The notes: a model not told the origin generated them from the sequence alone. A stretch of DNA of 64,000 nt from a virus (IMGVR_UViG_3300048854_000232:160618-224617), one strand, 5' to 3'. Shown: positions 579-9,882, counted from the first letter of the stretch. Numbers and translations: made by a program.

Positions 579-1082
579 ATGAACAACAAGTTTACCGTCT
601 ACCCTCGACTGTATACGAGCCGCTCCCCCGGGAGCGGCGTCGTGTCTTCGACGGGTGACGTCACGGTCGATACGCTCCATGGTTTCTTGACCTCTCGCAG
701 CGTCAACACCTCGGCCTGGGACTTCAAGAAGCGCGTCCTGCTCAGCGCGGTGCGCCTGTTCGGCGACTTCAACCAATGGATCAAGGATCAGCGGAACAAC
801 CCGCAGATCACCGGCTGGAACCTTGGGTTCCTGGCGGACACGCTGCAGTACATTCGTACGGGCGTGCGTGATGTATCGGTGCAAAACTGGGTAGACCTGC
901 TGGCGGAATCCAACCAGCACTCGCCCCAGGCTAACCACCTGACCACGCCGACGTTGGCTCTGGCCGCATCGGAAACCACCATCATGCTCATCCAGCAGTG
1001 GTGTTCTCATCCGGGCGGTCTCGAAGACATGCTCGCGACCCTCCATGTTCTTTTCGGTTCGGCGCGCCAGAAACTGGCGTAA
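579..1082 (+). CDS. Hypothetical protein of the phiKZ-like head gene block
   Basis: ATG at 579 after AAGGGA; 167 aa; typical codon usage. Confidence 0.6.
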   Translation: MNNKFTVYPRLYTSRSPGSGVVSSTGDVTVDTLHGFLTSRSVNTSAWDFKKRVLLSAVRLFGDFNQWIKDQRNNPQITGWNLGFLADTLQYIRTGVRDVSVQNWVDLLAESNQHSPQANHLTTPTLALAASETTIMLIQQWCSHPGGLEDMLATLHVLFGSARQKLA

Positions 1083-1116
1083 CGGATCTATCCTTATTTT
1101 CAGTCAGGAGTTTTCC

Positions 1117-2940
1117 ATGTCCTCCAAGACCCGCCTTTCCCAGCTGTTCGCTGATGCCAACAAAAGCAGCGTCGGCCTGGAAGACGACACCCGTCCGGTC
1201 GAACCGGCCGTGGACGATACCACCGATGCCCCGCTCGACGACACGGCCGCTCCGGCAGTCGATACGACCGACACCCCTGTCGATGACACAGTTGCCCCGC
1301 CGGTGATCGATGCTCCGGCTTCGACCGACGAACCCGCGGCTCCGGAAGTCCCCGAAGTCCCGGCCGTGCCGGAAGTGCCCGCTGTGGACGATACCCCGGC
1401 TGCGCCGGCTGTCGACGACACGCCTGCCGCTCCGAGCGAAGAGCCCGCTGTTGTGGACGCCCCGATTCCGGACGCGCCCATCGACGAACCCGCCGCTCCC
1501 CTGACGGACGAGCCAGCCCTGCCTGCCACCGATCCCATCGACGCCCCGGCCTCGACGGACGAACCGCCGGCTGCCGACCCGATCGATGCTCCCGCCAGCA
1601 CCGACGAGCCGGTTGCTCCGATCGACGACGCTCCGCTGGCTCCGGCCTCGGACGACGACGCCTCGCCCTTCACCCCGATCAGCGTGCCGGACACGGACAC
1701 CGCCGAGGCCTCCCTGGTCGCCGTGCGTGACTCCGCTGCCGAAGTCGCCGAAGTCGATGCGGCCCACAGCCGTTTCCACGAGATCGCCGATGGCCTGGAA
1801 TCGATCGCGCAGTACGCCTACACCCAGCTCCAGGAAGGCGGCCTCACCCCGCAGTCCGCGGGCATCATGACGATCGCCGTCGAGAATCTCATCAAGCCCC
1901 TGGGCTGGGATAAGCCGGTCGTGCTGTCGGTGGAATCCTTCGGTGGTCACTCGACCCGTATGGAAGCGACCACGCTTTCGTTCGAAGGCATCCAGGAAGT
2001 CGCCAAGCAGGTGCTGGACGCGATCATCGCGGTCGGCAAGAAGCTGTGGGAAACGGTCAAGTCCTTCATCGAGCGCGTGTTCGCCACCGCTTCGAAGGTC
2101 GAAGCTCGTGCCGACGCTCTCATCGAGAAGGCCAAGTCCGCCTCGGGCACGCCCAAGGCTTCCGAGATCGAAGTCGGCCCCGTGGCCGGGAAGCTCTCGA
2201 TCGCTGGTAAGGTCGTGGGCCCGGTCGAAGGTCTGACCGACCTGACCCGCCTCACCGACGGCTTCCTCGCCTTCGACGACGCCAACTACGCCAAGCTGAT
2301 GGAGTTCATCAGTAAGGTCCAGGCTCTGATGGGTGCTGACGACGCCAGCTTCGCTGATGCGTTGAAGGCTGTCCAGGACATGGAAACGGGCGTCAGCAGC
2401 GCGTACAGCGTCAAGGACGAATCCAATAACACTTACTCCACCCCGGTCCTGCCGGGCGGTAAGACGTTCTGGGTTTCGGTCGGCCCGTCGCTGGCCTTCA
2501 TGGCAGGCGAGCACAGTTCCGAGCAGTCGGTTCCCGAAGACGCCAAGCTGCCGACGCTTTCGCCGGCAGACATCGCCAAGGTTGGCGAGATGGCCAAGCA
2601 GGTCGCTACCGTTGCGGTGATCTTCCACAACGAAGCGAAGTCGATGAAGGAAAAGCAGCCGTTCGAGGGTCTCGAAGGTTTCCGCAACTTGAATGAAGGT
2701 AAGCTCAACGAGGAAAACTCGAAGCAGGCCGTCGAGCAGCTGCGTAGCCTGGCCAAGACCGCGACCGAAACGCGCAAGTACTCGGCCCGCCTCCTGGGCT
2801 ACGTGATCTCCACCGTGACCTCCTACCTCTCGCTCGCCGAGAAGTCGCTGGCTCAGTACGGTGCGGGCGCCACGGCTCCGGCTGAAGAGCCGGCCAAGGA
2901 AGACGACAAGCCGGCGGAGCCGGCTGCTGCCGCTGCGTAA
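1117..2940 (+). CDS. Internal head protein with long acidic Pro/Ala/Asp propeptide
   Basis: SD AGGAG before ATG 1117. Carries GLE, SVE and SFE prohead-protease-type sites and a GGLTPQSAGIMTIAVE..LG module typical of the phiKZ inner-head paralogue family. Confidence 0.75.
   Translation: MSSKTRLSQLFADANKSSVGLEDDTRPVEPAVDDTTDAPLDDTAAPAVDTTDTPVDDTVAPPVIDAPASTDEPAAPEVPEVPAVPEVPAVDDTPAAPAVDDTPAAPSEEPAVVDAPIPDAPIDEPAAPLTDEPALPATDPIDAPASTDEPPAADPIDAPASTDEPVAPIDDAPLAPASDDDASPFTPISVPDTDTAEASLVAVRDSAAEVAEVDAAHSRFHEIADGLESIAQYAYTQLQEGGLTPQSAGIMTIAVENLIKPLGWDKPVVLSVESFGGHSTRMEATTLSFEGIQEVAKQVLDAIIAVGKKLWETVKSFIERVFATASKVEARADALIEKAKSASGTPKASEIEVGPVAGKLSIAGKVVGPVEGLTDLTRLTDGFLAFDDANYAKLMEFISKVQALMGADDASFADALKAVQDMETGVSSAYSVKDESNNTYSTPVLPGGKTFWVSVGPSLAFMAGEHSSEQSVPEDAKLPTLSPADIAKVGEMAKQVATVAVIFHNEAKSMKEKQPFEGLEGFRNLNEGKLNEENSKQAVEQLRSLAKTATETRKYSARLLGYVISTVTSYLSLAEKSLAQYGAGATAPAEEPAKEDDKPAEPAAAAA
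1190..1665 (+). repeat. Low-complexity coding repeats (IDAPASTDEP x3, PEVPAV, VDDTPAAP)
   Basis: Repeated peptide units are visible in the translation, with synonymous divergence at the DNA level. Confidence 0.7.
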
Positions 2941-2946
2941 GTGGTT

Positions 2947-2993
2947 GCATAAGTAAGAGAGTCCTCCCTCCGGGGAGGACTCTCTTTATGCCG
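2947..2993 (+). terminator. Hairpin terminator with GCATA...TATGCC flanks
   Basis: AAGAGAGTCCTCCC / GGGAGGACTCTCTT stem followed by TATGCCG. Confidence 0.8.
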
Positions 2994-3006
2994 CAAAGGG
3001 CGCGAT

Positions 3007-3015
3007 GATTCTATG
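3007..3015 (+). promoter_or_regulatory. Putative late promoter GATTCTATG
   Basis: The same motif recurs upstream of structural genes; the TATG core matches the phiKZ late-promoter consensus. Confidence 0.55.
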
Positions 3016-3059
3016 TGTTAAGACCTTTTGTCGCTCTCGCCTGAATCAAAGGAAGACCC

Positions 3060-4391
3060 ATGTTCAACTCCCTGAATAGCCTGCTGCGTGTCAGCATGGA
3101 AGCCGCGGCTCCCGCAGCCTTGGCCAATACCGTTCCCGAGACCGATCTCATCGCTGAGAGCGACCAGGCCCAACTCAACCTGTGCGACGCCAAGGAAGCG
3201 GTAGTGGTGAGCCACCGTGATATGGAGCGTCTCTTCGAAGCAGTCGACTCGCTCGAAGCCATCGCCCAGAGCATGGAAGCCTACACTGCCACTGGCATGA
3301 ATCAGTCCACCGCGTTCATTGCCCAGCTGGCCATCGACCAAGCCGTGGCACCCACGGGTGTTTGCTACAAAGGCGTTTCCTTGGAAGGCTTTGTCGGTCA
3401 CCGCGCAGGCCATTCCACGCGTCTGGCCATGGAAGACCTCCACGAAACTGGCAAGGCGGTTATGGAGAAGTTGATCGAGGCCTACCGGCAGTTCCGGGCT
3501 GCTCTGGTTCGCTTCTTTCAGCAACTCCAACTGCACGTTAAGCTCAGTAAACAGCAGATTCAGAAGTTCTTGGCGGAACTGCAGTCCGCAGGTGAGGAGA
3601 AACGCCAGGAGGCCGTGAACGCCAGGATCGAAAACGGAAAGCTTTTCCGGCGACTCGCAATCGATGATGAGGTCCCCCACAGTCTCGCCCAGCTCGCTGA
3701 CGATAACCTGAAACTGGCCCAGCAATACCTCTCGACCACCGGCTACGGTAAAGACGCGTTGGAGTTCGCCGACGAGATCTCCAATTTCGCCGCTCGTGCG
3801 GCTCAGCGTCAGGGCGAATTCGAGCAGATCGTCACGGAAGCCTTCAAGCTGCGCTGCCCGATGCCGGCTGGGCTGACCGAGTACAACAGCTCGAATGGAA
3901 TCAAACATTATCGGTCACCGCTGTTGCCCGGGAACCACCGGATCGAATTCACCCAGGGCGAAGCATCTGACATGGGTGGCGAAGAGGGCGCCCGTGCGCA
4001 TTTGGGGGCGCTGTATCGAACGGGTCTTCAGTTCACCGCCGGACATCAGTCCATGGAGAAAGGATATCTCCCGCGCGCCACTCGCGCCGATCAGATCGGA
4101 ATCTGCGCTGCGAATCTGAAAGCTCTCGAGTTTGTGGAAGGCTTCCTTCAGGCCCATGGCGGGCACGAGATCAAGCACAGTGCCCTGATCAACTCCGCCC
4201 TGATCAATCATTCGGCGGTGGACACGGCCGACGGTAAGGGTAAGTACACCCTCTTCCGCCATGCCATCGACCGCGACATCGAAACCCATCGCGCTGTCAT
4301 GGGGATCTGCAACCACATTGCGGACGTCAGTCGCGCGCTGCAGAGTTACGCGCTGCAGAGTTACGGTGAGCGGTCGGCTCAGTCCGCATAA
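3060..4391 (+). CDS. Internal head protein paralogue
   Basis: 443 aa; SME, SLE and AME sites in the N-terminal propeptide region. Confidence 0.7.
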   Translation: MFNSLNSLLRVSMEAAAPAALANTVPETDLIAESDQAQLNLCDAKEAVVVSHRDMERLFEAVDSLEAIAQSMEAYTATGMNQSTAFIAQLAIDQAVAPTGVCYKGVSLEGFVGHRAGHSTRLAMEDLHETGKAVMEKLIEAYRQFRAALVRFFQQLQLHVKLSKQQIQKFLAELQSAGEEKRQEAVNARIENGKLFRRLAIDDEVPHSLAQLADDNLKLAQQYLSTTGYGKDALEFADEISNFAARAAQRQGEFEQIVTEAFKLRCPMPAGLTEYNSSNGIKHYRSPLLPGNHRIEFTQGEASDMGGEEGARAHLGALYRTGLQFTAGHQSMEKGYLPRATRADQIGICAANLKALEFVEGFLQAHGGHEIKHSALINSALINHSAVDTADGKGKYTLFRHAIDRDIETHRAVMGICNHIADVSRALQSYALQSYGERSAQSA

Positions 4392-4426
4392 ACCCCAGGA
4401 CTCCCTTCGGGGAGTCCTGTTATGCC
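4386..4426 (+). terminator. Hairpin terminator with GCATA...TATGCC flanks
   Basis: CAGGACTCCC-TTCG-GGGAGTCCTG then TTATGCC. Confidence 0.8.
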
Positions 4427-4434
4427 CTAAGGCT

Positions 4435-4443
4435 GATTCTATG
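4435..4443 (+). promoter_or_regulatory. Putative late promoter GATTCTATG
   Basis: Identical to 3007-3015. Confidence 0.55.
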
Positions 4444-4472
4444 ACATTTCAAGACATAAGTAGAGAACCCTC

Positions 4473-5768
4473 ATGACTCTGCGCCAACACCGCAACCTGC
4501 TTGCCAAAGACAACACCGCATTCGCCCTGGAAGGCCACACCGGTGGCGTGTCCATGGAGCTGGCTCACGAGGTCTCTCTGGCCATCGAGTCGTTGCAGCA
4601 TCTCTCTGACCTGGCCATGGGCCTGGAAGACCTGCGTAACGCCGCCTCCGGGATCTCGATGGCTAACCCGCAGCATCTGCTCCTGATCGAAGCGGGCTTG
4701 AACCTGGCCCACGCAGGCACGTTCCATACGGCCTCCGCAGACGAACCCAGCCTGGAAGCCTACCTCGGTAGCGAAGTATCTCTGGAAGGTTTGAACCAGC
4801 GCATCCGTGCGTTGATTGCCTCGATCCTGCAAGCGCTGAAGATCATCGGCGAACGCCTGCTGGAATTCCTCGAGTCCCTGGTCACCGATCTGGGCCAGCT
4901 GGAGACCCGCCTGGAACACGTCCAGTACGAAGCGGACGATGTCGGCGGTAAGTTCCCCAACCATCCGCAGGTCGCCTTGGGCAACGATGTCTACGGCGTG
5001 GCCACCGATCACGGTTACCCCACAGACGGTCATCGTCTGGTCGCGACGCTCTCGTTGCTGTCGATCCAGTCCAAGATGGTCTACGAGCAGTACGTGCCGG
5101 CAATGCAGCTGATTGGTCGGGCTCTCTCGGCGGAACTGAAGAAAACCGATGCGATCGCAAAGAACCCGGAAGCCTGGCTGACCGAGCTCAACACCAAGCT
5201 CAGCGTCTATAACGTAGACGCCTTCAAGAGCCACGTGGGCAAGACCTCCAACCTCATGGATAGTCGCTACCCCATGGGCAGCGCGATCGCTGCACAGCCG
5301 CTCCCAGGCATGCGCTCGATGGTCTTCGTCGATGGCTCGCGTCGTCGGGACGAAGATCGCAACCCCGTGATCAAGGAAGCCTACGATCGCCAAGCCTCCA
5401 CGGTCGAACTGGTCCGTGCCAATGGCGGACGCTCCTTCGATCCGGGCTCTGCTTCTATGGCCACGATGCCGGTCACGGTGATCCATGATGCACTGCGCGC
5501 GGTACATGGTCTGATCGGTGACATGAAGACCCATTTGGGCCACGGTGCCAAGCGTGAACTCAAAGGCACCCTGCGTGAGCTTCAGACCGCCGCCGAACAG
5601 ATGAGCACCCGTGATCCGGATTCCTCGGAGTTCCTCACGGTCGGCCTGCAGTACGTCATGGCCTACCAGCGCTGGATCAAACTCCAAGCGGATATGCTGG
5701 CCCTGGTCTACAACGTCAGTCGCTCGACGGTCAATGTCTGCGTACGCAACCTGCACGCCTACAAATAA
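4473..5768 (+). CDS. Internal head protein paralogue
   Basis: 431 aa; ALE, SME and SLE sites; PSLEAYLGSEVSLEG motif typical of phiKZ-like inner-head proteins. Confidence 0.75.
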   Translation: MTLRQHRNLLAKDNTAFALEGHTGGVSMELAHEVSLAIESLQHLSDLAMGLEDLRNAASGISMANPQHLLLIEAGLNLAHAGTFHTASADEPSLEAYLGSEVSLEGLNQRIRALIASILQALKIIGERLLEFLESLVTDLGQLETRLEHVQYEADDVGGKFPNHPQVALGNDVYGVATDHGYPTDGHRLVATLSLLSIQSKMVYEQYVPAMQLIGRALSAELKKTDAIAKNPEAWLTELNTKLSVYNVDAFKSHVGKTSNLMDSRYPMGSAIAAQPLPGMRSMVFVDGSRRRDEDRNPVIKEAYDRQASTVELVRANGGRSFDPGSASMATMPVTVIHDALRAVHGLIGDMKTHLGHGAKRELKGTLRELQTAAEQMSTRDPDSSEFLTVGLQYVMAYQRWIKLQADMLALVYNVSRSTVNVCVRNLHAYK

Positions 5769-5774
5769 GGCCTA

Positions 5775-5806
5775 GCCCCACTCCTTCGGGGGTGGGGTTT
5801 ATGCCG
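5775..5806 (+). terminator. Hairpin terminator + TATGCC
   Basis: GCCCCACTCC-TTCG-GGGGTGGGGT then TTATGCCG. Confidence 0.75.
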
Positions 5807-5846
5807 TCTATTCTATGGTGTACGTACACCTATAAGGAATATCGAT

Positions 5847-8627
5847 ATGTCCAAACTCATCAAGCAGTTCCTGGCAGCGCAGCCTTCTGTGCCGAGCCTG
5901 GAAGATCGTGACGACGAAGCTGCAGTGGCCGCTGCCGCTCCGGAAGCTCCGATCGACAATACCGCCGAAGCTCCGATCGACGCCCCGGCTTCCGACGACG
6001 TGGCCCAGATCCCCGCTGGCCTGGACGAACCCGCTCCGAGCGAGCCGGTCGATCCGACCACCGACGGCGATGGCTCCACCGACGAGGCCGCTGGCCTGCC
6101 CACCGATTCGATGGAAGACATCGAAGGTGAGCTCCGTGGTGAACCCGAGAACCAGCCCGCTGGTGACGACGTGCAGGCCTTCTTCGACGGCGACGGCGAA
6201 GTCGAGCGTGACGCGGCCGAAGACCGTGCGGTCGAAGTGGTCGAAGTCCTGAGCGCCGCGCGCGATTCCGATCGTGCCGTGGACGAGCTGTCGGTGGCCC
6301 ACGAAGGCCTGACCGACGTGCGTGACACCCTCGAGGCGATGAACCGCCAGGGCGGCGTGACGTTCGAATCGTTCCAGTTCATCGACATCGCCCTGAACAG
6401 CTACACCAAGGGCATGGGCGTGGAAAGCCTGCTCCTGGGTATCTCGGCCGAGTCCTTCGCCGACGAACCGGCGGATACCCGTCTGGCCGTCTCGCTGGAA
6501 GACATCGACGACCTGCTCAGCCGCATGGAAAAGGCCAAGCCCGCCCTGGAAGCCCACAAGGCTGACACCGGTACCCGCATGGCGGACGTCATGCGTGCGC
6601 TGGTCGGTGGTGCGACGATCCAGTTCGAAGCCTTCGATAGCGAAGGTGCTCCGATGCGTGTGCCCGCTGCCGATGTGGACGCGGATGCGTTTGCCGCCGC
6701 CCAGGCCGACAGCTTCGCCACGACCCGTCGTGAGCAGGGCGCTGCCCTGTCCGATGCCGCCACCGCCCTGGTGCGCGTGCACGGTACGATTGAAGACCAG
6801 AACGAAGCCGGCGGTCTGTCCACCGAAGCGCTCGTCGCTGCGACCCTCGCCATGGAATCGATCACCAAGCCGCTGGGGATGGCCGATGTCGACCTCGTGA
6901 CTTCGTTCGAAGGCCTTCCCCTCGATGCCAAGACCGTGATCTCCACCGAAGGTGTGGGCGATGCGATCAAGGCCGTGGGTTCGGCCATTGCCAACACCGT
7001 GAAGAGCGGCTGGCAGGCAGCGATGAATGCGTTCGGTCGCCTGAGCGGTACGGTGCCGACGACCATCAAGCGTCTGGAAGCTCTGCAGGCCCAGGCCGCT
7101 TCGGCCAGCGCTGCCGGTGGTGAAGTCAGCGGTAAGGGTGTGGTCAAGGCCCTGCACAAGGCTGGCCAGTGGCCGACCGACCTGCCGGTCTACCTCACCG
7201 ACTACTGCAAGTTCGCCAGCAAGATGACGGCGGTCTACCCGCTCAAGTCCTCGGAAGCCTTCTCCGCCAATACGGTGGCTTACGGACACCTGGACTATAA
7301 CAGCACCGAAGCGTTCTACACGTCCTTCGACGCCCTGGCGACCAACTGGAAGGATCCGCGCAAGATGGCGGGCCTGACCAGCGCCGATTTCGCGTTCGAG
7401 GTTCCGGGCGTGGGTTCCTACTTCGAATCGACGGATCTGGATGTCAGCTACACGGGCACCCGTCCGAGCGGTAAGAAGCTGCAGGACTTCTACAGCAAGA
7501 ACGCGATCAAGGGTACCTGGTACCGCGGTAGCGTCAAGCCGCCGGCCGTGGACCAGATCAAGGCTCTGACCAAGGAAGAGATCGCATCGGTCTCCGCCGC
7601 ACTGCTCGCTACGATGAAGGGGCTGCGTCTGGAAGTGCTGAAGAAGACGGCAGGTGACGTCTACAGCAAGTACGTGGAGGGCGGTAACGGTCACAGCAAG
7701 GTCATCCGCAAAGCCTCCAAGGAAACGCGCAAGGCCACCCACCCGGAAGAGTCCATCCTCGACTACGCCTACTTCGCCAGCTTCGTGCTCGCCATCGACT
7801 GGGGCTGGAACGCTGCGTCCGACCTGGTCAAGGTTGCCAACGCGTTCATCGCCTACGCGAGCCGCTCGCTCACCGCTGGTAAGGTCTCGGCCGAATCCCA
7901 CGGGGCGTCGAAGGTGACCGATGCGGACATCCACGCTGCTGAGAAGCAGGTCGGGTTTTCGTTCTCGGCCAAGTACAGCGCCTTCCTGAAGAAGCACGGC
8001 GGTACTACCAAGGGTTCGGAAGAGTTCTACGGGGTAGGCGCCGCCATGGGACATCTCGACGCCGTCAAGGAGTACGAGAGTCTGAAGAAGCACGCCAACT
8101 ACCCGGCCAAAGCCATGCCGCTGAGCGCGGTGGGTGATGGTCACTCGTACGCCATCTTCGATAACACCTCGGGCGAGATTCAGGATTGGTCCGAGCACGG
8201 TGGCGTCAAGAAGAGCCAGGCCCAGACGTTCGATGCGTGGGTTGCCTCGCTCGAATCGATCGGTGCCGAAGATCTCGGTGCCGAAGTCCCCGCCAATGGC
8301 CCGCCGGTGGAAACGGATGAGCCGGAGTCGGAGATCGGTCAGCCGGGCGCGCCGGGTGAAGAAGGTGCCATCGAAGCCGATGACGGTGCCGGTGGTAGCA
8401 AGGAAGGCGACGAGCCCTCGATGGAAGCCGACGTCAAGCAGCTGAAGTCGGGCACCAAGGTCAAGTACAGCCACGGTCACGGTAAGATCATCAAGGTCTT
8501 CACCGCGCCGTTCAAGTACAAGGGCGAGACCCACCAGGCCTCCAAGGACGCCCCGCGCTTCGAATGCAAGGCGGACAAGGGCGGCAAGACCTCCATCCAC
8601 AAGGCTTCGGCCCTGTCGCTGGTGTAA
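5847..8627 (+). CDS. Internal head polyprotein with C-terminal SMI1/KNR4-like and DUF2945 (Hva1 Tudor)-like domains
   Basis: 926 aa with many S/A-x-E sites. VTDADIHAAEKQVGFSFSAKYSAFLKKHGG is an SMI1/KNR4 signature; GKIIKVFTAPFKYKGETHQASKDAPRFECKADK...HKASAL matches the DUF2945 pattern. Confidence 0.75.
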   Translation: MSKLIKQFLAAQPSVPSLEDRDDEAAVAAAAPEAPIDNTAEAPIDAPASDDVAQIPAGLDEPAPSEPVDPTTDGDGSTDEAAGLPTDSMEDIEGELRGEPENQPAGDDVQAFFDGDGEVERDAAEDRAVEVVEVLSAARDSDRAVDELSVAHEGLTDVRDTLEAMNRQGGVTFESFQFIDIALNSYTKGMGVESLLLGISAESFADEPADTRLAVSLEDIDDLLSRMEKAKPALEAHKADTGTRMADVMRALVGGATIQFEAFDSEGAPMRVPAADVDADAFAAAQADSFATTRREQGAALSDAATALVRVHGTIEDQNEAGGLSTEALVAATLAMESITKPLGMADVDLVTSFEGLPLDAKTVISTEGVGDAIKAVGSAIANTVKSGWQAAMNAFGRLSGTVPTTIKRLEALQAQAASASAAGGEVSGKGVVKALHKAGQWPTDLPVYLTDYCKFASKMTAVYPLKSSEAFSANTVAYGHLDYNSTEAFYTSFDALATNWKDPRKMAGLTSADFAFEVPGVGSYFESTDLDVSYTGTRPSGKKLQDFYSKNAIKGTWYRGSVKPPAVDQIKALTKEEIASVSAALLATMKGLRLEVLKKTAGDVYSKYVEGGNGHSKVIRKASKETRKATHPEESILDYAYFASFVLAIDWGWNAASDLVKVANAFIAYASRSLTAGKVSAESHGASKVTDADIHAAEKQVGFSFSAKYSAFLKKHGGTTKGSEEFYGVGAAMGHLDAVKEYESLKKHANYPAKAMPLSAVGDGHSYAIFDNTSGEIQDWSEHGGVKKSQAQTFDAWVASLESIGAEDLGAEVPANGPPVETDEPESEIGQPGAPGEEGAIEADDGAGGSKEGDEPSMEADVKQLKSGTKVKYSHGHGKIIKVFTAPFKYKGETHQASKDAPRFECKADKGGKTSIHKASALSLV

Positions 8628-8647
8628 TCTGCCGTAAGGCAAAAAAG

Positions 8648-8682
8648 AAAAGAGAGGGCCTTCGGGCCCTCTCTTTTGTATG
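8648..8682 (+). terminator. Intrinsic terminator
   Basis: AAAAGAGAGGGCC-TTCG-GGCCCTCTCTTTT. Confidence 0.85.
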
Positions 8683-8840
8683 TTTTCTACCATGGGACAG
8701 TAAGTTTATACTTTCCATGACGGATAGTTTGCAAGTCTAAGCGTGTTTGTCCAAGCGTAATAAAAGCGGTCCGAGTAAGGCAGGCCGAGGCTAGGGCGTT
8801 ATGGCAACCTCGAACGAATATCTTTCAACAGGGAAACCCA

Positions 8841-9242
8841 ATGCGCATCGTCAATCACCACCTCGCCAAGGGGGAGAAAGATGCCCTGACCATTATGGTC
8901 ATGGATACTCCTCGTCCAGGTGAAGCCCATCACCGATACGAAATCACTGGCTTTGACACAGCCAAGAATCCGGCAGCCGTAGGCCCGGATGGGTACCGCA
9001 CCTGTTACAACATGTTACCCGTCATCTTCGACAACCCGGCGGCGGCTACCGACGGCCAGAAGAATGGCGTGACCATGCAACAACTGCTCGATATCTGTAC
9101 TGATCGACTGAGACATGAGGGGAGCGACGCCGAGACTCTTTCCGCGCTGGAAAGCCTCGCCCGCGTCGACGACTCCTTACGGAACCTGGCAATCCGTAAG
9201 GCGCGAGAAAAGGCGTATTTCGCTGTAGCTGCGGTTGCTTAA
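8841..9242 (+). CDS. Tad1-like protein (divergent), putative immune-signal sponge
   Basis: PGEAHHRYEITGFDT..NP...IF..NGVT.QQLLDICTDRL follows the Tad1 pattern GxGGAxHxYxI...FQxG...NG...LLxIxxDRL. Confidence 0.6.
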   Translation: MRIVNHHLAKGEKDALTIMVMDTPRPGEAHHRYEITGFDTAKNPAAVGPDGYRTCYNMLPVIFDNPAAATDGQKNGVTMQQLLDICTDRLRHEGSDAETLSALESLARVDDSLRNLAIRKAREKAYFAVAAVA

Positions 9243-9267
9243 CACCAACATCTGCGCGCAGGAAATA

Positions 9268-9306
9268 GAGACGAGCCTACCGGGGAGGTAGGCTCGTCTT
9301 ATGCCG
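9268..9306 (+). terminator. Hairpin terminator + TATGCC
   Basis: GAGACGAGCCTACC / GGTAGGCTCGTCTT then ATGCCG. Confidence 0.8.
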
Positions 9307-9462
9307 TTTTCCCGATGTTTGCCAGGGTCGCTAGTATTTCCTTACACGGATAGGGTATTTGCTTACTACCCCGTTGAAGGATATACAGGGGAAACTGCAA
9401 TTGTTGTCTAACACAACCCAACGGACAGAGACAATCGCTCGACTTGCACACTGAGGTTTACC

Positions 9463-9882
9463 ATGCGAACCATTACCGAACACTTGCAGGCGGAAGGTGA
9501 GAGCCCGACGACTGTCGTTGCGATGGACAACCCGGCCCCGGGTCACGCCAACAACCGCTACGATGCCCTCGGATTCAATACGGTATACAACCCGGCCGCC
9601 GACGTCAATGGCGTGTCTGCACGCTTCACGCGCCTCCCGATCATCTTCCAGTCCAATCCCGATCTTCCGGCCTACATGCCGCAGGACGGTATCAGTACGG
9701 AAGCCCTGCTCGCGATCTTGGCTGACCACCTTGCCAGCCAGCTCCAGACGCCCCAGGCCTGCCACGAGTACGCCGCTGCGGGCCAAGCCGTATCCCACGC
9801 CATCGAAGTGCTCGCTGCTCGTCGTGCACGCGTGAGTGGGCAGCACCCGAACGTCGTTCAGTTCCACCAGAACGTCGCCTGA
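9463..9882 (+). CDS. Tad1-like protein paralogue 2 (divergent)
   Basis: PGHANNRY...IIFQ...DGISTEALLAILADHL...PQACHEYAAA aligns by eye with Tad1 (PFSxRENAxA) and with 8841-9242. Confidence 0.6.
   Translation: MRTITEHLQAEGESPTTVVAMDNPAPGHANNRYDALGFNTVYNPAADVNGVSARFTRLPIIFQSNPDLPAYMPQDGISTEALLAILADHLASQLQTPQACHEYAAAGQAVSHAIEVLAARRARVSGQHPNVVQFHQNVA

Follow-up and report, generated by a model that had tools for sequence, protein, structure and literature searches.

Why would an internal head protein of a phiKZ-like phage end in two small folded domains, each bordered by a motif of the prohead protease? The question is raised by a gene in a 64,000-nt stretch of viral DNA (IMGVR_UViG_3300048854_000232:160618-224617, hereafter the window), part of a 294,599-base virus record that is phiKZ-like by gene content. 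The gene (positions 5847-8627; Table 1) encodes a 926-amino acid (aa) head precursor of the phiKZ_IP family. An initial annotation, made from the sequence alone, had read it as a polyprotein whose head-targeting leader carries captured, swappable cargo delimited by protease sites, and comparison with relatives strongly supports that reading. The layout is the one described there: the head domain is followed by V-S-A-E, a SUKH (SMI1/KNR4) domain, A-S-L-E, an acidic linker, P-S-M-E and an Hva1-Tudor (DUF2945) domain. All three motifs lie where they had been placed, and the predicted tail pieces measure 120, 57 and 66 aa, the 57-aa linker being acidic (17 D+E, 1 K+R).

The hidden Markov model search proposed with that reading returned the families it had named, with both tail domains above the Pfam cut-offs. 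SUKH_5 matches aa 688-800 (E 4.7e-14, 52.8 bits against a cut-off of 27; 57.8 bits on the piece alone) and SMI1_KNR4 aa 690-800 (E 1.1e-9; 45.1 bits on the piece alone), while Hva1_TUDOR (PF11160) matches aa 875-923 (E 3.4e-9, 37.1 bits against a cut-off of 24.1; 42 bits on the piece alone); an independent feature search gave the same Tudor and SUKH families. Upstream of them, phiKZ_IP (PF12699) is found at aa 283-594 (E 4e-21, 76.1 bits against a cut-off of 27). NCBIfam held no model matching the protein or its pieces. An AlphaFold model, based on 41 aligned rows, has high confidence in the leaders, in the head domain as far as residue 680 and in the Tudor domain from 861, and low confidence in between. 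Foldseek matches of the head domain are virion proteins of phiKZ-like phages, and the whole model found no match under E 0.001 in the PDB. The modelled Tudor domain (predicted local distance difference test, pLDDT, >90) has five strands and fits Cryptococcus Hva1 (PDB 4P5N) with Z 6.5 and a root-mean-square deviation of 1.9 over 59 residues, tied with other Tudor/KOW folds. Folded separately from eight rows, SUKH takes a full-length fold (pLDDT 71) whose best matches are YobK, BF1740, Syd and Knr4 (2PRV, 3D5P, 2ICG, Syd and Knr4 at template modelling scores of 0.50-0.69, best E 1.9e-3), a likeness that is partly circular since SUKH members supplied the alignment behind the model.

Whether the S-x-E motifs are real sites depends on more than their number. 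The phiKZ protease cuts S/A/G-X-E (PMC13282480). The 926-aa protein holds 16 S-x-E against 6.0 in shuffled sequences (p 0.0004), the top count among 271 called open reading frames, and its tail (676-926) holds 6 against 2.2 (p 0.012). The annotation had seen the motif exactly at the domain borders; three border sites bear this out, but six of the 16 lie in folded parts (three S-x-E of the head domain and two of SUKH) or mid-linker (one), so that the motif is not restricted to borders and its bare occurrence is no proof of a site. What sets border sites apart is their conservation and a middle residue that is hydrophobic or Thr: S681, S858 and E860 are invariant in all eight aligned sequences, in which the S-x-E inside folded parts are not conserved. 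A-S-L-E, which forms the last turn of the final SUKH helix in the model, is less certain than the other two. With its enrichment and its conservation at the borders of domains, the motif is not a product of chance, and the protein is a predicted substrate of the prohead protease.

A wider comparison points the same way. A profile made from eight relatives matched 1197 cluster representatives, the best 150 of which were examined. Among these, 32 bear a Tudor domain (>40 bits); one (P0149) is of the stand-alone bacterial type, leaving 31 head-type proteins, which come without genomic context and whose phage origin is judged from head domains, leaders and contigs L004-L006. In 29 of the 31, an S-x-E ends 6-9 residues before the first glycine of the Tudor domain, where the S-x-E density of the same proteins predicts 3.6; the other two have A-M-E and T-M-E at that place. 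The middle residue of the 29 is M in 12, L in 12 and T in 5, and the distance is kept on all carriers. Bacterial copies instead begin at their own ATG: 80 loci were fetched around P0149, and of the 65 that were readable, 64 have an ATG at most 15 codons (mostly 6-7) before the first glycine and one has an S-x-E before it. Bacterial ATG and phage S-x-E thus occupy one position, the motif replacing the start codon, and a cut there would restore the native N-terminus. Behind the head domain, a site within 26 residues was counted in the 76 of the 150 proteins whose match reached the last helix: it is present in 22/22 Tudor bearers, 4/29 proteins with an acidic tail only, 1/7 with other tails and 2/18 with short tails. 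We regard cleavage before the Tudor domain and behind the head domain as highly probable in each case, and cleavage directly behind SUKH as likely.

The Tudor domain is 44-76% identical to the window copy in these relatives, against 22-42% for the head domain, and the higher of the two in 22/22 comparisons; by this measure its conservation is about twice that of the head domain. The layout of head domain plus Tudor recurs in 22 other proteins, and the domain has been exchanged between carriers, being also borne by a paralogue (P0040), by proteins without a head domain (P0022, P0056, P0065) and by a small carrier (P0008, P0070, P0095, P0104), the profile of which aligns to the window family only over S-x-E and Tudor. 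The small-carrier Tudors fall at three places on a short, poorly resolved Tudor tree, and 54 of the 76 head domains have no Tudor. DUF2945 is expected as a stand-alone protein, but each of the 31 head-type proteins carries it as a fusion, from which it would be freed only by the predicted cut; on the tree, the phage copies group apart from the bacterial ones, with which they have residues H918, K900, P903 and L923 in common. The Tudor domain had no match in the Xanthomonas phages LucasX, RTH11 and Xoo-sp14, in a search where no control matched either; against phage records nothing significant was found (one match at E 0.06), and scans of viral contigs with the family and Tudor alignments gave no matches. 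P0030 and P0105 have degenerate Tudor-like C-termini (15 and 14 bits; 22.5 bits for P0030 on Pfam) and were counted as lacking the domain.

An isoelectric point (pI) of about 10 and the Tudor/KOW-like fold would suit a small, basic barrel that binds nucleic acid and travels with the genome, a role to which we give even chances. The link of Hva1 to NADPH is indirect (PMC5008624). Around bacterial DUF2945 (61 neighbouring proteins at 30 of the 80 loci), no defence or toxin pattern was found; transketolase domains lie upstream at five loci, and DUF488 lies just downstream at six (L022, L034, L044, L064, L082 and L084, from three phyla).

SUKH behaves differently. Not one of the other 149 proteins shows it (for P0029, the display left out two families of lower rank), and the phage genome has no second SUKH match. 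A soil run (X3) contains a sister strain with pieces 90-99% alike, one contig of which links window position 7872 to 8266 via 21 other bases, in frame and with 124 codons fewer. At this joint the whole SUKH domain is gone and, reading across it, one S-T-E is left before the linker, as in most relatives: SUKH has been lost or gained as a cassette. Because no other relative has it, a gain in the lineage of the window is the simpler history. Comparing cargo across orthologues, as the initial annotation had suggested, thus shows two sorts of cargo: an old, highly conserved passenger (Tudor), kept by many relatives on several carriers, and a strain-variable accessory (SUKH). The cassette ends show only a 12-base direct repeat at 8260-8286 and no sign of a mobile element, and GC content at third codon positions (GC3) is 0.81 in SUKH and 0.83 in the head domain. 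No close relative of this SUKH was found by a word-index protein search, in PDB sequences or in phage records; there was none in 400 genomes of one bacterial class either, a search that shows little as it had no positive control.

Sequence and predicted fold place the domain in the SUKH superfamily (SMI1/KNR4, with the viral US22 group). The bacterial members are predicted to confer immunity to nuclease toxins, and in animal DNA viruses SUKH domains are directed against host defence (PMC3113570); the main text of that article has the word phage once and, as far as it was available, describes no phage SUKH. Unlike a bacterial immunity protein, which would stand alone beside its nuclease toxin gene, the window SUKH is fused into a head gene whose neighbours are head paralogues and small genes of unassigned kind, with no toxin gene adjoining; PADLOC gave a weak partial match only (PDC-M40A, E 0.0009). 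By analogy with the bacterial immunity and viral US22 proteins, we tentatively suggest that it is an accessory decoy, recently acquired by this lineage, that binds a host nuclease or another defence protein. Action against toxins or defence, once proposed for both domains, would fit SUKH only, for which it is plausible; for Tudor the case is weak.

Other modules share these positions. In relatives, the slot between head domain and Tudor spans 11 to 353 residues and is filled by spacers of acidic character, by a coiled coil that is basic (P0010) or by glycine-zipper peptides (P0002, P0017, P0019, P0029). Peptides of 40-115 aa that combine a glycine-zipper hairpin with a basic coiled coil are bounded by S-x-E in P0002, P0017, P0019, P0029, P0051, P0105, P0128 and LUCX_109 (L001:1567-3942), in some proteins behind the head domain and in others in the N-terminal region. 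They are candidates for membrane-active ejected peptides; an S-x-E precedes 12 of 15 such modules, a count that is circular, the modules having been picked by S-x-E splitting, and that was not used as evidence. In the cultured Xanthomonas phages, LUCX_36 of LucasX and its RTH11 orthologue have P-S-M-E and then a SUKH-like domain on the small carrier. The genome of the window has a cargo-less form of this carrier (C1:96849-97433 of G000; L009:850-1434), of 194 aa with three S-x-E and no family match. It resembles P0008 (E 3e-6) and, in alignment, LUCX_36 (25% identity, shared short motifs); since a tblastn search with it against phage records found nothing, the latter kinship rests on alignment and is weaker than that with P0008. 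The first head paralogue of RTH11 (L002:1365-4157) bears twice, between S-x-E in its N-terminal region, a basic module of about 130 aa with no Pfam match.

How might such a precursor work? The leader at aa 126-368, presumably a head-targeting or scaffold part, would bring it into the prohead, where Peptidase_S80, a full-length gene of which is present in the genome (C1:70367-71119 of G000; 267 bits), would cut after each border S-x-E (368, 683, 803 and 860). Leaders and linker would be lost, products of 33.6, 12.8 and 7.2 kDa would be kept in the capsid, and the freed head domain, SUKH and Tudor would be injected along with the DNA. Taken as a whole, this reading of a phiKZ-like head protein with protease-released SUKH and Tudor domains, packed and injected, seems to us rather likely. 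Retention of Tudor in mature heads is quite probable; its injection we favour by a lesser degree.

Much of this machinery has precedents. The same domain family and a similarly long multi-site propeptide are found in phiKZ gp93, gp94, gp95, gp162 and gp163 and in SPN3US gp53/gp54 (PF12699), and the prohead proteases gp175/gp245 of phiKZ/SPN3US belong to the protease family of the window genome, with S-x-E as in phiKZ. PF12699 proteins are abundant head proteins, gp93 being cut at SLE-13 (PMC5694885). This gp93 is packaged at high copy and injected; when fluorescent proteins are fused to the C-terminus of gp93, gp92, gp97 and further head proteins, the fusions are likewise packaged, and injection brings them into the early infection vesicle (bioRxiv 10.1101/2024.03.24.586471). 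As far as described, cuts in phiKZ and SPN3US remove an N-terminal propeptide and leave one mature protein; the window protein differs from them in its doubled leader and in further sites behind the head domain that bound one or two folded domains varying by strain or carrier. In T4, IPI* is an inhibitor of the GmrSD nuclease. The T4 proteins IPI-III and Alt are loaded by a cleavable leader, the capsid-targeting sequence, which is cut by gp21, and are retained and then ejected (PMC7411985, PMC5694885). Each T4 protein has a leader of 10-20 residues and each gene yields one product, whereas the window precursor would yield several and has, in place of a short N-terminal targeting peptide, a 368-aa leader with two helical repeats; by analogy, it would work like the capsid-targeting sequence without being a member of that class.

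Several points weigh against this scheme. The injected gp93 fusions stayed joined to their carrier and so do not demonstrate ejection of a free piece. Of 14 cuts mapped in SPN3US, 13 take off N-terminal propeptides and the sole C-terminal one is the protease's own; propeptides are mostly absent from mature heads, though some pieces persist (PMC10052503); by analogy, pieces of 7 and 13 kDa could leave the head too. On a quick tree of the 76 head domains, the Tudor label needs 9 changes against 19.1 when shuffled, so the relatives are not independent and kinship inflates the counts, with strong branches forcing at least 6 changes. The bacterial control is a family around one query, and the SUKH-less form is known from one contig at depth 5.2. 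In the full model, confidence is low over 681-858 because SUKH lacked aligned rows, not because of disorder. Finally, the SUKH-like domain of LucasX and RTH11 matches at 22.6 bits, below the curated cut-off and over the first half of the profile only, and has no BLASTP likeness to the window SUKH; it was probably captured separately, and is the less certain case.

Should the tail remain uncut in vivo, the protein would be a multidomain fusion and its motifs relics of linker duplication. Motifs inside the head domain and SUKH are compatible with this, as is the fact that about 80% of SPN3US head proteins are uncut (PMC10052503), yet only the border residues are invariant and the motif keeps its distance before Tudor on every carrier, which makes such a history quite improbable. 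That the fusion is a chimeric assembly, as might be feared of a metagenome-derived genome with a SUKH unique to it, has a negligible chance: a single contig of run X1 spans the gene with 0 differences (X1 may itself be the source run), two short pieces from run X2 are identical (0 differences) to 8078-8379, which covers part of SUKH and the right junction, and head domain and Tudor are joined in 22 other proteins as well. Tudor may also be true cargo while SUKH is a recent, nearly neutral and functionless capture in a tolerant linker. This is doubtful in our view: its absence from the relatives and the sister strain and the lack of any close relative speak for it, but the domain retains a full-length fold, GC3 like that of the head domain and S-x-E on both sides, and the SUKH-like fusion of LucasX and RTH11 is kept at 56% identity between them, above the 48% of its carrier.

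A further possibility is that the sites are cut while the modules act only in head assembly or inside the capsid, by making core contacts, packing DNA or balancing charge, and are then cleared or left behind instead of serving as injected effectors. Counter-defence proteins are typically fast-changing, unlike this basic and strongly conserved Tudor domain. Mapped SPN3US and T4 cuts mostly remove propeptides and scaffold, and the C-terminal propeptide of the SPN3US protease has been proposed as a targeting signal (PMC7411985). Against a universal assembly part stand the many head domains without Tudor; in addition, the domain moves between unrelated carriers, and a cut restoring the bacterial N-terminus suggests that the free form matters. 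We therefore consider a purely structural role unlikely and retain release and injection of the cargo as the preferred reading.

Cargo delimited by protease sites at the C-terminus of phiKZ_IP proteins was not described in the open-access literature searched, mostly at listing level; the original phiKZ proteolysis study may list internal or C-terminal cuts. The main text of a jumbo-phage survey (PMC7824862) mentions no SUKH, Tudor or internal head, and a 2026 review (PMC13282480) does not use the word polyprotein and gives a single anti-defence protein as described for jumbo phages. The capsid-targeting sequence of T4 and phiKZ gp93 provide known examples of the parts of the mechanism; its form with several C-terminal, swappable products, backed by direct strain-level evidence, is new to the literature searched. 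It bears on what phiKZ-like phages inject and how the genome is protected in the first minutes. If true, protease motifs would predict small injected proteins hidden in genes annotated as single hypothetical proteins, DUF2945 and phage SUKH domains would have their first functional leads, and a chosen protein could be loaded in free form into a jumbo-phage head by a natural route. More speculatively, and with considerable reserve, loading by the head proteins of this clade of nucleus-forming phages may be of a plug-in kind, in which any small domain recombined behind an S-x-E is packed at high copy, freed with its native N-terminus and delivered ahead of all phage gene expression. SUKH would then have been recruited at least twice as ready-made blockers of host nucleases, Tudor and glycine-zipper peptides would accompany the genome and the early infection vesicle, and the injected arsenal would be readable from sequence.

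Table 1. Features of the head precursor gene and its surroundings (window coordinates).
Feature	Position	Strand	Remarks
Internal head precursor gene, phiKZ_IP family, 926 aa, one open frame	5847..8627	+	
Acidic, predicted disordered N-terminal region, aa 1-125, with S-L-E and S-M-E	5847..6221	+	pLDDT <50 for 20-100
Two copies of the helical phiKZ_IP leader (propeptide), aa 126-368, five S-x-E	6222..6950	+	Profile positions 10-98 match twice
S-T-E 366-368, predicted maturation site at head-domain start	6942..6950	+	E368 (nearly) invariant in alignments; helix begins at 368
Internal head domain, aa 369-683, 33.6 kDa	6951..7895	+	Pfam, model, Foldseek
V-S-A-E, predicted cut behind head domain, ends residue 683	7884..7895	+	
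SUKH (SMI1/KNR4) domain, aa 684-803, 12.8 kDa	7896..8255	+	
A-S-L-E, predicted cut behind SUKH, ends residue 803	8244..8255	+	G-A-E motifs then at aa 806-808 and 811-813
Strain-variable cassette, 393 bases swapped for 21 others, in frame	7873..8265	+	Contig of run X3
Acidic linker, aa 804-860, ending in P-S-M-E (residue 860)	8256..8426	+	
Hva1-Tudor (DUF2945) domain, aa 861-926, 7.2 kDa, pI about 10	8427..8624	+	
Three upstream phiKZ_IP paralogues (1045-2940, 3060-4391, 4473-5768)	1045..5768	+	S-x-E-rich leaders; no Pfam cargo domain above cut-off
Terminator-like hairpin, closes head-protein cluster	8648..8677	read on both strands	Consensus match only

The gene is the last of four tandem phiKZ_IP paralogues, and no sigma-70-like promoter was found in 2800-9500. 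The same genome encodes a phiKZ-type major capsid protein (PhiKZ_MCP), chimallin (C1:115430-117442, E 6e-55) and tubulin (C1:103452-104441), and by this gene content the phage is predicted to be nucleus-forming. Its nearest named relatives are LucasX, RTH11 and Xoo-sp14, to which parts of the protein are 25-36% identical. An RNA run (X4) covers 181 bases of the head domain, which is not evidence of expression.

Beyond the head cluster, tandem small genes at 8841-9242 and 9463-9882 match one PHROG (23843) weakly, and similar pairs come after the head cluster in LucasX, RTH11 and L004. Small head-cluster open reading frames in LucasX (L001:4037-4435, LUCX_110) and RTH11 (L002:9315-9773) resemble, by eye, the leader alone, without a head domain. 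Between the sister strain of run X3 and the window (7444-8564), the codon changes listed alter the residue in 11 of 20 cases within the head domain (aa 533-663) and in none of 8 within linker and Tudor; the head domain may be diversifying.

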